Counted from the stretch's first letter, positions 3,856-25,433 are shown. The stretch is 52,982 nucleotides of DNA from a virus (IMGVR_UViG_3300042253_000131:1-52982); one strand, 5' to 3'. Numbers and translations: made by a program. Notes: generated by a model not told the origin, from the letters alone.

Positions 3856-4801
3856 CGGCGGGGCGGAGGCCAGGGTCTCCGGCCGGGCGCTACGCCGCTT
3901 CCCCGAGCGCGAGGTCGAGCGCCTGCTGCGGGCCCGGGTTCTGATCGAACAGCGCAAGGCCGACAATTGGCCGGTCTGCACGCATTGCGACTGCGGGCTT
4001 GATGCGCGCCCGATCCGGCGGGTCGGCGACGAGATTCGCGCTTGCTGTCCGCATGATGCCGCTGAAGACGTTGCCCTCACCGAGGACGACCTGAAACGCT
4101 ATTCCGTCGACGGGGAACACCTGGCGGGCGAAATCGCGGCATCGGGCGGGCTTGTCGGCGGCGTGGTCCGGATGGATGACGGCGTCTGGCTGATCGGCAA
4201 GGCACCTTCAGGCTATGCCATGGTGCTTTGCAACGACCCTGACAGGTTGGAAGCGCCCGGCATGATCCTTGCGCTCAAGGCCGCGGTGGGCGGCACAAGG
4301 GTGGCCCTGATCGCCACCGCAATCGAGGCGACCATCGCAATTCGTTGGCGGGAAGCCGGAATTCCGGTGCTGGACTTCAGCGAGGTGATGATCCCTGACC
4401 AGTCCGGTGCGGATCGTCTGGACCTCGCGCGGATCCTTGCGGAGCCGCACGTCGCGGCGACGTCCTCAGATTCCGCCGCATCCAGAACCGCCCGGCTAAT
4501 GATTTCACGCTCACGGCGAAGCGTGCAACTGGATGGCCGCGATTTCGTCCTGTCGCTTACCGAATTCGACTGTTTTCTCGGTGCCGCCGAGAAGGTCGCG
4601 GCTGGACAGGTCATGCTCACCTATCAGGAACTCTATGCCCTGACCAACCGGGCGACCCATCGCGATGTCATCAACGAACTCCGCGACAAGTTGCAGAAGC
4701 AGGGTCTGACGCGCGAACAGGCTTTCGACCTGGTGAAGACGGTGCACGGACGGGGACTGACCATCAGCTTGCCGGGACAGGACATCGACATCCGCGACTG
4801 A
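3824..4801 (+). CDS. Putative transcriptional activator with C-terminal OmpR/PhoB-type winged helix
   Basis: C-terminus LSLTEFDCF..LTYQELY..INELRDKL..LVKTVHGRGL resembles the trans_reg_C fold; N-terminal Cys cluster CTHCDC..CC. Confidence 0.7.
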   Translation: MLTWLWKRLSNGGAEARVSGRALRRFPEREVERLLRARVLIEQRKADNWPVCTHCDCGLDARPIRRVGDEIRACCPHDAAEDVALTEDDLKRYSVDGEHLAGEIAASGGLVGGVVRMDDGVWLIGKAPSGYAMVLCNDPDRLEAPGMILALKAAVGGTRVALIATAIEATIAIRWREAGIPVLDFSEVMIPDQSGADRLDLARILAEPHVAATSSDSAASRTARLMISRSRRSVQLDGRDFVLSLTEFDCFLGAAEKVAAGQVMLTYQELYALTNRATHRDVINELRDKLQKQGLTREQAFDLVKTVHGRGLTISLPGQDIDIRD

Positions 4802-20222: not shown

Positions 20223-20471
20223 CAAGCCATTGTTTTACGGTTCCTTTCCGGGCCGAAACGTATGCTGGCGGGCGAAGCGCGGCATATCGCCAGCGACAGG
20301 GCCGATTTTTTGGGAAGCCACCCCGGGTGGAGTCCACCCCCGAAACCACAAATAACCACGCAATAACAACCACTTGGCTGGTGGACTCCGGGGTGGACAC
20401 CCTGGACCCCGGAGTCCAGCCGGAAGCCCGTGGATGCCCGCATCGCGGAATCCACCCGGGCGGAAGCCGCC
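20223..20471 (+). other. Lambda-like cos site (cosQ-cosN-cosB architecture)
   Basis: TTTACGGTTCCTTTCCGG (cosQ-like GGTTCCT 20239-45), TGGCGGGCGAAG-CGCGG (20266-82), GGA(G/A)(T/G)CCA repeats and IHF-like sites; the terminase is GpA-family. Confidence 0.65.
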
Positions 20472-20492
20472 CCATCATCGACAGGAACCTGC

Positions 20493-21866
20493 ATGACCCT
20501 CAGCTTCGCCCCGGACGCGATCGAGATGTGGCCGCTTGCGCGCCTGCAGCCCTGCGCGAGGAACGCGAAGGTGCATGGCGCCGAGCAGGTCGCCAAGATC
20601 GCTGCCAGCATGGCCGAGTTCGGCTGGACCGTGCCGTGCCTCGTGGCCGAGGACGGTGAGCTGATCGCGGGCCATGGCCGGGTGCTGGCCGCCACGCAAC
20701 TGGGGCTGACGGAAGCGCCGGTGATCGTGCTCGGCCATCTGACCGAGGCGCAGCGGCGGGCCTATCGCATCGCCGACAACAAGCTGACGGAGCTCGGCAC
20801 CTGGGACGAGGCGTTGCTGTCGGCGGAACTGAACGACCTGCTGGCCGAGGATTTCGACCTGTCGCTGGTCGGGTTTTCCGACGGCGAGTTGGACAAGCTG
20901 CTGGCCTTCGTGCCGGAGGGGGACGGCGAGGAAAGCGGCGGCACCAGCGTGCCGCCGGTGACCATCCCCGAGCCGCCGCGCAATCCAGCTTCGCGCACGG
21001 GCGATCTCTGGATCCTTGGCGACCATCGGCTGCTCTGCGGGGACAGCACGAACCACGCCGACGTGCGCCGCCTGATGAACGGCGAACGGGCGGTGCTATT
21101 CGCCACCGACCCACCGTATCTGGTGGATTACGACGGATCGAACCACCCGACGCGGAATAAAGACTGGTCGGCGTCTTATGGCACCACCTGGGATGACAGC
21201 AGCCAAGGCGCGGACCTCTACGACGGTTTCATTGCCGCTGCGGTCGCCGAAGCCATCGCCGACGATGCCGCGTGGTATTGCTGGCACGCCTCGCGCCGCC
21301 AGGCGATGCTCGAAGCCTGCTGGGAGAAGGCGGGCGCCTTCGTCCACCAGCAGATCATCTGGGTGAAGGATCGCGGGGTTCTGACCCGCTCGCACTATCT
21401 CTGGAAGCACGAACCCTGCTTCATGGGTTGGCGTCGCCCGAACCGGCCGCCGAAGGTGGCCGAGGAAACGCTGCCCTCGACATGGGCGCTGCCCAGCTTC
21501 GCCAAGGACGACCGGCCCGACCACCCGACCCCGAAGCCGCTCGACGCGTTCGGCATCCCGATGCGCCAGCATGTTGCGCGGGGCGGCCTCTGCTACGAGC
21601 CCTTCTCGGGCTCGGGTTCGCAGATCATGGCGGGCGAGGCCAACGGCCGCCGCGTCTTCGCAATGGAGATTAGCGCGGCCTATGTCGATGTCGCCGTCGA
21701 ACGCTGGCGGGCCGAGACCGGGCGCGAGGCGATCCTCGATGGCGACGGTCGGACCTTCGCTGAGGTGAGAACCGAGCGGCTGGGGGACGACGCCGAAGCC
21801 CGGGCCGATACGCCGGTCAAGGACGCCGCCCCCGAACCCGCGCGAAAGCGCAAGACCGCCGCGTGA
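20493..21866 (+). CDS. ParB-N domain + N6A/N4C DNA methyltransferase
   Basis: ParB-like IAGHGR..RAYRIADN; TDPPY; HPTPKP; EPFSGSGS (beta motif order). Confidence 0.9.
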   Translation: MTLSFAPDAIEMWPLARLQPCARNAKVHGAEQVAKIAASMAEFGWTVPCLVAEDGELIAGHGRVLAATQLGLTEAPVIVLGHLTEAQRRAYRIADNKLTELGTWDEALLSAELNDLLAEDFDLSLVGFSDGELDKLLAFVPEGDGEESGGTSVPPVTIPEPPRNPASRTGDLWILGDHRLLCGDSTNHADVRRLMNGERAVLFATDPPYLVDYDGSNHPTRNKDWSASYGTTWDDSSQGADLYDGFIAAAVAEAIADDAAWYCWHASRRQAMLEACWEKAGAFVHQQIIWVKDRGVLTRSHYLWKHEPCFMGWRRPNRPPKVAEETLPSTWALPSFAKDDRPDHPTPKPLDAFGIPMRQHVARGGLCYEPFSGSGSQIMAGEANGRRVFAMEISAAYVDVAVERWRAETGREAILDGDGRTFAEVRTERLGDDAEARADTPVKDAAPEPARKRKTAA

Positions 21867-22829
21867 CATGCATGACCTGGCTTTACGTTCCTCCGGAGAC
21901 ACTTCCGGAGCCGGAGACGCATGCCTCTTCGGCCTCTCCCTCTGCTCCGGCGCAGGCGGTCTCGACCTCGGGCTTGCCATCGCCATCCCCGGATATCGTG
22001 CTGTGGGCCATGTCGAACGGGAAACCTTCGCCGCAGCCACTCTCGTGGCGCGGATGGAAGACGCGTCCCTGGATCAGGCTGTTGTCTGGGACGACGTTGG
22101 AACCTTCGACGGCGGCCCGTGGCGCGGCGCGGTGGACATCGTCACTGCGGGCTATCCGTGTCAGCCGTTCTCCGTCGCAGGCAAGCGCCGGGGCACGGAC
22201 GACCCGCGCCACCTCTGGCCGCATGTCGCCCGCATCATCGGCGAGGTCGAGCCACCCTTCGTCTTCCTCGAGAATGTCGCCCATCATCTCCGCCTCGGCT
22301 TCCCCGAAGTCGCCGCAGGACTGGTCCGCATGGGCTACAAGCTTGCGGCAGGCCTCTTCACGGCGGCGGAAGTCGGCGCGCCCCATCGACGAGAGCGGCT
22401 CTTCATCCTCGCCATCCGCGAAGGGGACGAGTTGGCCGACCCCGCGCGCCTGCTCTGGGACCCGTTCGAGCGGCGGCAACCGGACGGAGATGCTGCGGCT
22501 CTGGCCGACACCGATGGCGAACGACGGTTGCAAGCCGAGCGCGGGCAACCGCAAGACGGCCGATCTGACCCATTCGGCGGGGATGTGGATGACGCCGACG
22601 GCCCGGGACCACAAGGATGGCGCGACGAGCCTGGCGAACACGCCGGTGAACGGCCTGCTTGGCCGCCAGGTCCTGGTGACGCCAGCGGTTGGCGCGCCTT
22701 CCTGCGACACGCCCCGGACCTCACATGGGCACTCCGATGTCAACGGTTGGCATTTGGTCACATGATTACGCTCCGTCTGTTTCAGGATCCGAGGTCCGAG
22801 CCCGAATGCATGACGCGGCCCGGTTCCGG

Positions 22830-22980
22830 GCACGATCAACCTCACATACGGTCGCGCAGGTGCCCTGTCGGGCGGTCGGCGCGGTCCAGAATTCCGCTTG
22901 CGGCGGGCTGGGCTCGAGCGGATGAGACCAATCTTGAACACGGTTCTTGTCAGACCAGGGTCCGGCCCGGTTCATCCACC
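22830..22980 (-). ncRNA. Putative bridge/seek RNA (target- and donor-binding loops)
   Basis: Guide segments match the insertion site (CTTGAAC 22933-39, GGTCCGG 22959-65) and the circle junction (CTCACAT 22841-47, ATTCC 22891-95). RNA ends unknown. Confidence 0.75.
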
Positions 22981-23036
22981 CGGATCCGGCGAGGCTGATC
23001 GGGCCCCGTCGAATTTCGAAAAAAGGATGTATCAGG

Positions 23037-24206
23037 TCAGGCGGGTTTCATCGCGGCACCCTCGATCACGACACCCGTGGCGACGTATTTCCAGAGTGCA
23101 ACCAGCAGCTTTCGCGCCAGCGCCACGATGGCGGGTTTGCGCGAGCGGCCACCCTGATGCGCCACCCTGTCGCGAAACCACTGCGTCAACGCCGATGTCG
23201 GCTGGTGCTGCAGCCAGAGCCAGGCCAGCTGGATCATCGTGGTGCGCAGCCGCGGATTGCCGGCTTTCGACACGCCTTGTTCCTGGTCGACCGCTCCGCT
23301 CTGCCACGGCGTCGGCGCCAGACCCGCATAGGCGGCCACCTGCCTTCGGTTGTCGAAGTGACGATAGAGCCCCTCCGACCAAAGCAGCATGGCGAATTCC
23401 GGGCCGATCCCCCTGATCTCCAGCAGCCGCGCGGCCGAGGCGGGCAGCGCGGCCTCCCGGGCCTGTGCCAGTTCGGCATCGCGCTCGGCCTCCACCGCCT
23501 TGATCTGCGCCAGCAGCAGTTCCAGCCGGTCGAGCTCGCGCAGGATCTGCGCCGTCAGATGCCGCGGGAGTTCCCGGCCGTCCCCGGTCCGCAGCTCTTC
23601 CAGCCGCTTGCGACGATCGCGCCGCAGCGGCTCATATCCGCTCACGCCTTGCGCGAAGAGCAGCCCCTTGATGCGGTTGACATGCGCAACACGCTCGCCG
23701 GTCAGGGTCTTGCGCTCGCGCATGATCCGGCGCGCGTCCTCCTCAGCGGGCGACGGGGCCCGGACCATGGCGCAGACCCGCGGCTCTGCCCGCTTGAAGG
23801 CCAGCAGCGCCCGCACCAGTGCCTCGCCGTCGATCCTGTCGGTCTTGGCGCGCCGCCGCCGACGCGAGGTCGCGATCGAGGCCGGATCGACGACATGGCT
23901 CTCGATGCCTTCCTTCACCAGCGCGCGGTGGATCCAGAAGCCGTCGAGACCCGCCTCCTGAATGGTGACGATCGGGAAATCCCGTCCCGTGCGCGCCTTC
24001 GCTTTCGCTACAAGAAGCCGGAAACGCTCCATGAGCCCCGCAATGTCGCCGCCCGGCACGCTGTGCTTCGACATCTTCTCGCCGCCGCCGGGCGACAGCG
24101 ACGTGACGACCCAACGCGATCGGCTGAGTTCCAACGAGACGAAAATCGCGCCAAGATCGGTGCGGATCGCGGCCGGCGTGATGATCGCGGGGGAAGGCTT
24201 GTTCAT
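23037..24206 (-). CDS. IS110 family transposase/recombinase (389 aa)
   Basis: CAGGAG RBS; RuvC-like SLELS / QEAG / KTDRID; C-terminal GIGP, GLAPTPWQSG, GNPRLR, ALARKL. Confidence 0.93.
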   Translation of the reverse strand: MNKPSPAIITPAAIRTDLGAIFVSLELSRSRWVVTSLSPGGGEKMSKHSVPGGDIAGLMERFRLLVAKAKARTGRDFPIVTIQEAGLDGFWIHRALVKEGIESHVVDPASIATSRRRRRAKTDRIDGEALVRALLAFKRAEPRVCAMVRAPSPAEEDARRIMRERKTLTGERVAHVNRIKGLLFAQGVSGYEPLRRDRRKRLEELRTGDGRELPRHLTAQILRELDRLELLLAQIKAVEAERDAELAQAREAALPASAARLLEIRGIGPEFAMLLWSEGLYRHFDNRRQVAAYAGLAPTPWQSGAVDQEQGVSKAGNPRLRTTMIQLAWLWLQHQPTSALTQWFRDRVAHQGGRSRKPAIVALARKLLVALWKYVATGVVIEGAAMKPA

Positions 24207-24434
24207 GGCTGTCTCCTGTGCAGATGGGTGTCTGAGCAACCCCACTCTGCCAGAGCGCCGGTCGCGGTCCACCGCCCATGGAATCTTGAACCCGCTGTTC
24301 GTCGAGGCGCTGATGGGCTGGCCCACCGGGTGGACCGGCTTCGGCTCTGTGGCAACGGCGTGGTCCCGCTGGTTGCAGCGTATGCGCTCCGAACTCTGGC
24401 GGCTGAACTGCTGGCCGATGGATGAGGCCGCGAC

Positions 24435-24650
24435 ATGAAGCAGTCGCGCCTCATGTCGCTGGTCGAATCCGTCGCCAATGTGATCGTCGGCTACGGCGTT
24501 GCGGTCGTCACGCAGATCCTGATCTTCCCGGTCTTCGGGCTGCACACGACGCTGGCGCAGAACCTGAAGATGGGCGCGATGTTCACGGTAGTGAGCATTG
24601 CACGCTCCTTCGTCCTGCGAAGGGTGTTCGAGGCGATCCGGGGGCGATAG
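24435..24650 (+). CDS. Small membrane protein (DUF7220-like)
   Basis: MKQSRLMSLVES, two hydrophobic helices; common after phage methyltransferases. Confidence 0.75.
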   Translation: MKQSRLMSLVESVANVIVGYGVAVVTQILIFPVFGLHTTLAQNLKMGAMFTVVSIARSFVLRRVFEAIRGR

Positions 24651-24725
24651 TGACGGTCAGATTGGCGGACGAAGCGGTCGTTTGCGGTCTGCCAGTGCGA
24701 CTGACGCGCGCACTGGCAGATAGCG

Positions 24726-25433
24726 TCAAGTCAGAGTCTGAAGGCGCACCTCACCGGCATTCAGGAAGCAGGCTTTTGAGAAGATGCCGGAAGGGATTGG
24801 ATTGGGAAGGCGAAGGTCGGCAATGCCCGGCACAGCCGTGACCTCGGGTTCGTAGGACCGGTCGATCTGCGAGATCACTCCCAGAATGACACCGGTGCTG
24901 CGTGTGAATGCCTGCAAGACCTTCATCTGTTCCGAAAGCGGGGGCTTTGTCCTCTGCTGATCGAGGATCTGCAAATAATCGATGACAGCCACAGTGCCCC
25001 TTGGTGCGCCCAACAGATGCTGGACGATGCTGTCGGCGCAGATATCGTCTGAGGTGACGATTTCGGGCATGAGTTCGGGCAACGGGTCGGCAAGTGCGCG
25101 GAACTGCTCGATCGCCTCGCGTTCAGTGTATTCCAGCGTGAAGAGGACGCTTCGCCGCCCTGCGTGGGCAGTATCGAGCAGCAGCTGCAATCCAAGCCGC
25201 GTCTTACCTTGCCCGGGACGGGCAGCGATCAGGAGCATATCGCCATATGCAAGCTCTTGCAGCAGTGGGTCCTCATTGGAACCCGCCTGGACGCGTGATG
25301 CCAGCAGGCTCCATGCAGTGAAGCCTTCGTCAATGGCAACACGGTCCTGTGCTAAATGCAGAGGAATTTTCTCATGACGGGCCAAGAGCTTGGCACGCCG
25401 TTTCAACTGATAGATCGGTGCGGACAGTCGCAT
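24726..25433 (-). CDS. Short DnaB-C/RecA-fold ATPase (accessory 'DNA helicase'-like)
   Basis: ARPGQGKT, FTLE, IDYLQ, SQIDR; GGAGG RBS; lacks the DnaB N-terminal domain. Confidence 0.8.
   Translation of the reverse strand: MRLSAPIYQLKRRAKLLARHEKIPLHLAQDRVAIDEGFTAWSLLASRVQAGSNEDPLLQELAYGDMLLIAARPGQGKTRLGLQLLLDTAHAGRRSVLFTLEYTEREAIEQFRALADPLPELMPEIVTSDDICADSIVQHLLGAPRGTVAVIDYLQILDQQRTKPPLSEQMKVLQAFTRSTGVILGVISQIDRSYEPEVTAVPGIADLRLPNPIPSGIFSKACFLNAGEVRLQTLT

Follow-up and report, generated by a model that had tools for sequence, protein, structure and literature searches.

What kind of element interrupts this 52,982-nucleotide viral stretch (here called the window) at 22722–24286, and does the non-coding end behind its recombinase gene encode an RNA with guides that can be read against the element's own target and its own ends? 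We conclude with high confidence that the element is an intact insertion sequence of the IS110 family, within the ISRel9-like clade, and that a bridge RNA (seekRNA) is encoded in its 3' non-coding end, on the strand of the recombinase gene. The kind is known, because Durrant et al. predict a bridge RNA by covariance models in 93.0% of the IS1111-group elements of ISfinder; alongside the IS621 bridge RNA and the IS1111 seekRNAs, the element adds a new orthologue.

The limits of the element can be read from its junctions. On the left, CCGGAC (22714–22719) is followed by one copy of a CT core (22720–22721) and by the tip CACAT (22722–22726), the sequence past CT being CACATGGG. On the right, CCATGGAAT runs to 24284, ending in GGAAT (24280–24284), and is followed by the other CT (24285–24286) and by TGAAC (24287–24291). 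The body between the two CT copies is 1563 bp and carries one long frame on the minus strand. Non-coding DNA extends for 315 bp downstream of the recombinase gene, from the end of the stop codon (23037) to the tip (22722), which is the length that an earlier reading of this DNA, made from sequence alone, had assigned to it, and for ~78 bp upstream; relatives share this layout, long downstream and short upstream, and keep the terminal motifs. The core reads AG on the recombinase strand at both ends in 63 of the 65 copies in which both ends were found (AG/AA in the other 2). As is typical of the IS110 family, the insertion is flanked by this 2-nt core and not by any long target duplication. The arms of the 7-bp sub-terminal repeat, which was taken from direct reading and is absent among the 25 repeat pairs listed by a repeat search, co-vary in relatives, with 6/6 positions agreeing in 50/65 copies.

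The site before insertion can be recovered as well. The element lies in a C5 cytosine DNA-methylase gene, the frame of which is continuous across it by direct reading (..D T P R T|L N P L F V E A L M G W P..; past the junction TPRT|LNPLFVEALMGWP). Contigs of two public runs (X11 and X3) link 22683 to 24285 via 36 other letters ending ..GCCGGAC, then CTTGAAC, so that uninterrupted methylase homologues carry exactly the predicted empty site. The pre-insertion target CCGGAC-CT-TGAAC proposed by the sequence-only reading is in this way upheld by both junctions, by the methylase frame and by the empty-site contigs, and both element ends read in the window as its proposed circle junction GGAAT-CT-CACAT calls for. 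Pfam gave no match on the two short methylase fragments that flank the element, these being too short.

Table 1. Features of the element and its surroundings, numbered along the window.
Feature	Position	Strand	Remarks
IS110-family insertion sequence, including one CT core copy	22722..24286	-	1565 bp; junctions read in sequence
Sub-terminal inverted repeat, right-end arm CATGGGC (+ strand)	22724..22730	.	Partner GCCCATG at 24273-24279; 7 bp; read directly
C5 cytosine DNA-methylase gene, interrupted, upstream part	21868..22719	+	Pfam DNA_methylase, E = 3.6e-32; resumes 24287, ends 24438
Recombinase gene	23037..24206	-	389 aa; likely ATG at 24206, AGGAGA 7 nt before ATG
Putative catalytic residues of the recombinase	E26, E84, D123, D126, S303	-	Alignments with paralogues and IS621/ISCro4
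5' stem-loop CGGGGC-CCGAUCA-GCCUCG	22990..23008	-	Helix 1; 5/6 pairs change on both sides
Target-binding loop domain: outer stem, internal loop, inner hairpin (22956-22941)	22915..22982	-	Helices 2-4; alignment A1
5' target guide GCCGGACCCU	22957..22966	-	Same as + strand CCGGAC..CT; one nucleotide too many facing the core
3' target guide GUUCA+AG	22933..22939	-	Pairs with + strand CT-TGAAC; 5 variable positions + AG
Donor-binding loop domain: outer helix 22914-22910/22803-22799, inner hairpin 22887-22849, 3' hairpin 22837-22812	22799..22914	-	Helices 5-7; RNAalifold
5' donor guide GGAAU-U-CU	22888..22895	-	Corresponds to left end GGAAT|CT read on + strand
3' donor guide AUGUG+AG	22841..22847	-	Equals right-end tip ..CATGTG|AG on recombinase strand
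Candidate handshake guide GUU, after 3' donor guide	22838..22840	-	First nucleotide can pair with the target base adjoining the core
Mini-ORF: Shine-Dalgarno-like GGAG 22774-71, AUG 22763-61, UGA 22760-58, start-stop	22758..22774	-	Between RNA and right tip; 3 codons in most relatives
TTGACA box, candidate -35 of a circle-junction promoter	22738..22743	-	17 nt before right tip; 17-19 nt in relatives (TTGAC(A))

The assignment of the protein to the IS110/IS1111 recombinases, also made from sequence alone, is confirmed by NCBIfam NF033542, 'IS110 family RNA-guided transposase' (223.8 bits over residues 22–378, against a cut-off of 140), and by two Pfam domains, Transposase_20 (E = 1.4e-15) and DEDD_Tnp_IS110 (E = 3.5e-08). 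Its C-terminal domain aligns with the IS621 and ISCro4 structure chains (phmmer E = 5e-09, residues 260–385), GLAPTPWQSG falling on their GLTPRRYESG, including the Ser-Gly of the catalytic loop, and S303 on their Ser. These chains, like enterobacterial plasmid genes, align with the recombinase only over the C-terminal third.

The N-terminal catalytic positions are placed by four canonical IS110-family paralogues encoded in the same genome (contigs C15, C40, C73 and C12; L083–L086). Since ..VSLELSR.. aligns on their ..IGIDISK.. or ..GLDVS.., E26 is the counterpart of the first catalytic Asp, and E84, D123 and D126 match the remaining acidic residues (E, D, D). All four paralogues have Asp where the element's recombinase has Glu, and so both active-site types coexist in one genome. 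The Glu had been remarked upon in the first reading (SLELS); it is real, and is a trait of the whole clade rather than special to the window copy. It occupies the first catalytic position in 80/80 of the close relatives kept for comparison (defined below) and in 99 of the 115 aligned representatives of a wider survey, which took the best 150 representatives of 50%-identity clusters, 37–80% identical to the window protein (151 rows including that protein: E 99, D 10, other 7, gap 35). On these alignments, Glu is a clade trait of active, multi-copy elements, interchanging with Asp in neighboring lineages. No published mention of a Glu variant in the IS110 family was found in the literature searched, and the passages on the DEDD motif in one preprint (10.1101/2024.06.21.599552) do not mention it.

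Behind the recombinase gene, on the same strand, lies the conserved structured part of the predicted RNA, ~210 nt long (~23008–22796) and made up of a 5' stem-loop, a target-binding loop and a donor-binding loop (Table 1); in relatives, the spacer of 25–35 nt that separates it from the stop codon shows no conservation. An RNA had initially been drawn at 22830–22980, and while the two loops are indeed there, that extent proves too short, the 5' stem-loop and a 3' hairpin belonging to the RNA besides. On the + strand, the loops show the common scaffold that had been described for them, aat-CTTGAAC-acggt..ccAG-g-GTCCGG (22930–22965) and aac-CTCACAT-acggt..ccAG-a-ATTCC (22838–22895); the closing stem GGATGAgACC/GGTTCATCC and the inner hairpin GGTtCT/AGACC are where they had been placed, and the target loop does come first on the recombinase strand. 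Both inner hairpins open with a conserved U-G pair (in 38 and 42 of 42 sequences), the U of which is the last nucleotide of the 5' guide. Because the 5' target guide is identical to + strand CCGGAC..CT, its partner would be the minus strand in the flank past the right end; the guide matches the empty-site contigs at 7/7 positions and the window's own flank at 6/7.

Evidence for this fold comes from relatives. One genome per species was scanned, 484 relatives were found among the 600 stretches examined, and the best 80 (68–98% protein identity) were kept; alignment A1 comprises the window and 41 of these 80 loci, picked as complete and distinct. It has 40 invariant columns, and the columns of the four guides are without consensus. 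RNAalifold, together with a count of pairs, backs the 5' stem-loop, the stem of the target loop, the two inner hairpins and the donor domain's outer helix. Stem cells are paired in 95.2% of cases, as opposed to 27.7–49.0% with slid partners, and changes on both sides are seen in 18 of 33 pairs, a result that 0/500 shuffles reach. A long-range helix beyond the donor domain (GGAUCCRGG/CCUYGGAUNC) was considered and rejected: a local CAGG/CCUG, extending the target-loop stem, co-varies instead (pair 51–121 is A-U in 28 sequences, G-C in 7 and G-U in 3), and the distal partner does not follow. A search of 22000–25000 against Rfam 15 gave three matches (E = 0.7–3.4), all below their gathering scores and none on the non-coding end.

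From which strand would this RNA be made? Guide complementarity does not fix the strand, because each loop has one segment for each DNA strand, and an RNA made from the + strand, antisense to the recombinase gene, would find its matches equally well. The fold, on the other hand, separates the two. The recombinase strand gives a z-score of -2.72, with 1/200 shuffles as good, whereas the + strand folds no better than its shuffles (z = +0.02; 97/200). Reading the + strand would also turn 101 G-U cells of the stems into A-C mismatches, as compared with 24 the other way, and canonical cells number 1355 of 1417 on the recombinase strand versus 1278 on the + strand. In all studied relatives, moreover, the RNA sits on the recombinase strand, and we give next to no credence to an antisense RNA. 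The RNA is accordingly described here on the recombinase strand.

If the guides are what they seem, they should change together with the sites in which different copies sit. The comparison of guides with flanks drew on the window, the 80 loci and one further copy present in L059, 82 copies in all, with one copy per distinct guide; element tips were placed by conserved terminal motifs (AG-ATCCCATGG.. and ..CCCATGTG-AG) under pattern rules of our own. Copies with an end, flank or guide that was missing, unrecognized or contained N were dropped, 16/82 from the right-flank test and 6/82 from the left-flank test. The 5' target guide agrees with the right flank at a mean of 6.10 of 7 positions (39 classes, 66 copies), with 7/7 in 21 classes; the mean upon shuffling is 2.48, the maximum 3.36, and 0/10,000 permutations are as high as observed, these permutations counting guide classes as independent although classes share ancestry. 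In 8 of the 39 classes, the 5' guide matches poorly in the copy examined. The 3' target guide agrees with the left flank at a mean of 4.54 of 6 positions (50 classes, 76 copies), as compared with a shuffled mean of 1.61, and again 0/10,000 are as high, under the same treatment of classes. Position by position, the five bases adjoining AG track the flank (0.76–0.90) and the sixth does not (0.28), which is why we define this guide as 5+2 nt, in agreement with the CTTGAAC originally singled out.

The donor guides follow the element's own ends in a similar manner. In 68/68 copies, the 3' donor guide is the same as the final 5 nt of the right end (ATGTG 56, ATATA 10, ATACA 1, ATATG 1). Variation at the left end is mirrored in the 5' donor guide, GGAAU occurring with ATTCC in 4 copies and GGGAU with ATCCC in 40 or, by G-T wobble, with ATCCT in 27; 4 copies misfit. 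Guide/target covariation among relatives had been put forward as a check when the locus was first read, and the outcome, for both target guides and for the 3' donor guide, is the one anticipated; the matches of guides to flanks and ends likewise bear out the claim that each loop holds one segment per DNA strand.

A handshake can be read in one direction. In 35/39 classes, the nucleotide that follows the 3' donor guide is able to pair with the base of the target adjoining the core, in 19 of them by Watson-Crick pairing, and 0/10,000 shuffles reach either figure. For the opposite handshake, from target loop to donor, the candidate was rejected: its first nucleotide, A, and the partner T are invariant, so that no covariation is readable, and its second nucleotide does not track left-end variants.

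The two loops had also been described as carrying one extra base after AG. An extra base is real and common in the family; it is best placed inside a core-facing triplet C/U-N-U, and it is not universal. In 23 of the 39 classes of 5' target guide, nt 1–7 pair with flank bases 1–7 and three RNA nucleotides face the two-base core. Among these 23, purines are absent from nt 8 (C in 18, U in 5), nt 9 varies freely (A in 15, C in 3, U in 3, G in 2), and nt 10 is U in 21 and G in 2, a distribution which suggests that nt 8 and nt 10 may pair with the core and leave nt 9 unpaired. Every 3' guide has AG as its last two bases; the last three of a 5' guide are N-N-U, the middle base being variable, and those of the 5' donor guide are mostly A/G-U-U. 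In the window, the triplets C-C-U and U-C-U leave the position of the unpaired base ambiguous. As to other registers, 7 classes are contiguous (8+2), 1 needs an extra DNA base and 8 match poorly; with 23 classes bulged and 7 contiguous, the extra base is common but not fixed.

One relative deserves separate mention. The 98% identical element L003 has a 5' target guide one base off the window's (GCCGGAUCCU), and its flanks read GCCTGATC|CT|TGAATC, a register that is contiguous rather than bulged. This site is tentative because both junctions carry NN, probably scaffold joints.

By analogy with IS621, the following course of reaction may be proposed for the predicted RNA and its recombinase. The two sides of the target loop would pair with opposite strands of CCGGAC|CT|TGAAC, and those of the donor loop with GGAAT|CT|CACAT, the sequence formed where the element's ends are joined in the excised circle. 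By homology with IS621, each loop would be bound by a recombinase dimer and the dimers would come together as a tetramer, with composite active sites formed from the RuvC-like residues E26, E84, D123 and D126 plus Ser303. Cuts beside the CT core, strand exchange through a Holliday junction and resolution would then leave the circle inserted with CT on each side, as is seen in the window. After exchange, the nucleotide following the 3' donor guide would pair with the core-adjoining target base, and AUU after the 3' target guide (22932–22930) could pair with the donor. The RNA itself would probably be cut out of the recombinase transcript, that transcript having started at a promoter formed only at the circle junction. 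We infer from natural retargeting among relatives that the recombinase is reprogrammable, the word used of it in the sequence-only reading.

Complementarity alone cannot separate RNA from DNA, and it might therefore be proposed that the guides act as single-stranded DNA, as in target selection of the IS200/IS605 type. We regard this as very improbable. The protein belongs to a family with members shown to use RNA, the guides are located 120–245 nt into the element and belong to a fold whose inner hairpins both start from a conserved U-G pair, and only one strand folds better than shuffles. All three points argue for RNA guides.

A more serious alternative is that the window copy is a silent or dead relic, which retains the anatomy of a bridge RNA while RNA and recombinase are no longer made. 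The element is single-copy in its genome, neither a sigma-70-like promoter nor an intrinsic terminator was found in 22600–24400, and one flank base mismatches the 5' guide. Read-through from the interrupted methylase gene cannot express the element either, because the element is antisense to it. RNA-library contigs cover the region in 4/4 runs compared with it, the highest share of sampled words in any run being 0.24, but these contigs are relatives at 90–99% identity and uninformative on transcription, ends and strand. Weighing against a relic, the 389-aa frame is open, and the copy has kept intact all five catalytic positions, its two tips, the sub-terminal repeats and each of the four guides; the 98% identical copy in another genome (L003) indicates, further, that the element has spread recently. 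Silence of the linear form is, moreover, the normal state described for the family in the seekRNA paper (PMC11187229, section 12). A relic thus seems improbable to us, and an intact element remains by far the better reading.

A conserved TTGACA box near the right tip is a candidate -35 element for a promoter that the circle junction would complete, ISEc11, ISEc21 and IS621 providing the analogy. According to PMC11187229 (section 12), such a promoter arises when circle ends abut in ISEc21 and, by back-reference, in ISEc11. The -10 that would form across the junction here (TGT-GAGATT, spacer 15) is weak.

A very short reading frame also lies in the tail that separates the RNA from the right tip. 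A mini-ORF of this type (a GGAG-like motif, 5–11 nt, ATG and a stop within three codons) occurs in 37 of 49 distinct tails, as compared with a mean of 0.38 and a maximum of 3 in shuffles and 0 in reverse complements. Its ATG lies 37–55 nt (mostly 40–45) from the right tip, and the encoded peptide differs from copy to copy (MSP, MES, MRD and MNP, among others), the frame in the window being a bare ATG-TGA.

How does this system compare with those that have been studied? With IS621 (PMC11208160, PMC11208158), it shares the order of 5' stem-loop, target loop and donor loop, the CT core, and the arrangement in each loop of a 5' guide identical to the left half of the CT strand and a 3' guide complementary to its right half. 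Handshake guides after the 3' guides are likewise described for IS621 in PMC11208158, and a Ser nucleophile with a RuvC-like tetrad is common to both, Ser and tetrad being placed here by alignment. A discontiguous guide has a parallel as well, in that the right donor guide of IS621 uses 9 RNA nt to pair with 7 DNA nt (PMC11208160), and the unpaired nucleotide lies in the 5' guides here. Unlike IS621, the element has its RNA downstream rather than upstream of the gene, and its 5' guide reads the flank beyond the right end; its core appears as AG when the recombinase strand is read, so that its orientation is reversed with respect to the recombination site. IS621 has a 3' target guide of 4 nt that can extend to 7; the one here measures 5+2 nt. 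This recombinase has Glu as its first acidic residue, and only its C-terminal domain aligns with IS621 by phmmer.

Likeness to the IS1111 group (ISEc11, ISPa11, ISKpn4; PMC11187229) extends to the long non-coding region downstream of the gene, to sub-terminal repeats with short extensions and to the motif GL-P----SG; the 7-bp repeat falls within the 7–17 bp that defines the group. In seekRNAs of the IS1111 type, according to the same paper (section 9), the forward-strand complement precedes the reverse-strand complement in the 5' to 3' direction, and here the 5' guide is complementary to the right flank of the recombinase strand and the 3' guide identical to its left flank. This likeness is one of layout and strand order; the recombinase, at 389 aa, lies outside the 330–350 aa given for IS1111-type proteins. 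A complete donor loop and a handshake nucleotide are readable here, whereas the seekRNA paper (PMC11187229) describes target matches. ISEc21, in that same paper (section 12), targets a conserved coding motif of other mobile DNA (IS3-family transposase genes), much as the present element has inserted where a C5 methylase gene encodes a conserved C-terminal motif; it differs in having its RNA upstream of the gene and the opposite order of strand matches.

The nearest named element is ISRel9, known from NCBI annotations of Rhizobium/Agrobacterium plasmids, with 72.8–73.3% protein identity over residues 6–389. It belongs to the same clade as L033–L035, L038 and L047, which share the scaffold; guides and insertion sites differ from those of the window. 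No paper in the literature searched mentions ISRel9.

It is tempting to go one step further and to regard the ISRel9-like clade as a third, distinct layout for bridge recombination besides the plain IS110 and IS1111 types, with a Glu-type site, a two-loop RNA 3' of the gene, a 5' guide tolerant of 9-, 10- or 11-nt readings of the target beside the core and a translated mini-ORF of 1–3 codons. We consider this proposal doubtful. Were it true, one guide could serve sites differing by one base, and a ribosome at the mini-ORF might set the 3' end of the bridge RNA, its stability or its release, or might gate read-round transcription on the circle.

The element in any case offers the toolbox a natural bridge-recombinase orthologue from a GC-rich host, with a CT core, guides of 7+5 nt and guide positions mapped by ~40–50 guide classes. 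For enzymology, it raises the questions whether Glu, the rule in this clade, is equivalent to Asp at the first metal-binding position, how an unpaired nucleotide facing the core is accommodated and whether it widens or shifts site choice, and what role the conserved mini-ORF behind the RNA plays. Such elements, to judge from the site in the window, home to conserved coding motifs of phage-type methylase genes.

The surroundings of the insertion merit brief description. In the methylase gene, the frame changes at ~22440–22500 (+), motifs as far as ..RERLFILA.. being in the frame of 21868 and ..LWPTP.., together with the insertion site, in that of 21863; this change is a frameshift, a pseudogene or a sequencing error. 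The upstream neighbor (20430–21866, +) encodes 478 aa with a Pfam N6_N4_Mtase match at residues 224–424 and an N-terminal part that looks ParB-like. Two adjoining methylase genes suggest a prophage-like neighborhood.

Among relatives, a set of 13 loci (L023, L025–L027, L031, L039, L041–L045, L052 and L053) sits in ..GTCGA(C/T)GAGAA(G/A)|AG|CCA(A/G)ATCCAGGC.., which, read across the element, gives the codons VDEKSQIQAL, presumably a conserved motif of another, IS630-like transposase gene. If this site is a transposase gene, it would be a case of an insertion sequence homing to the genes of other insertion sequences. In L024, extra partial copies of the donor loop (3959–4029 and 4536–4723) lie past the right end, and L075 and L082 carry ~180 nt extra between the RNA and the right tip, their tails measuring 270 and 268 nt as compared with ~80–90 nt.
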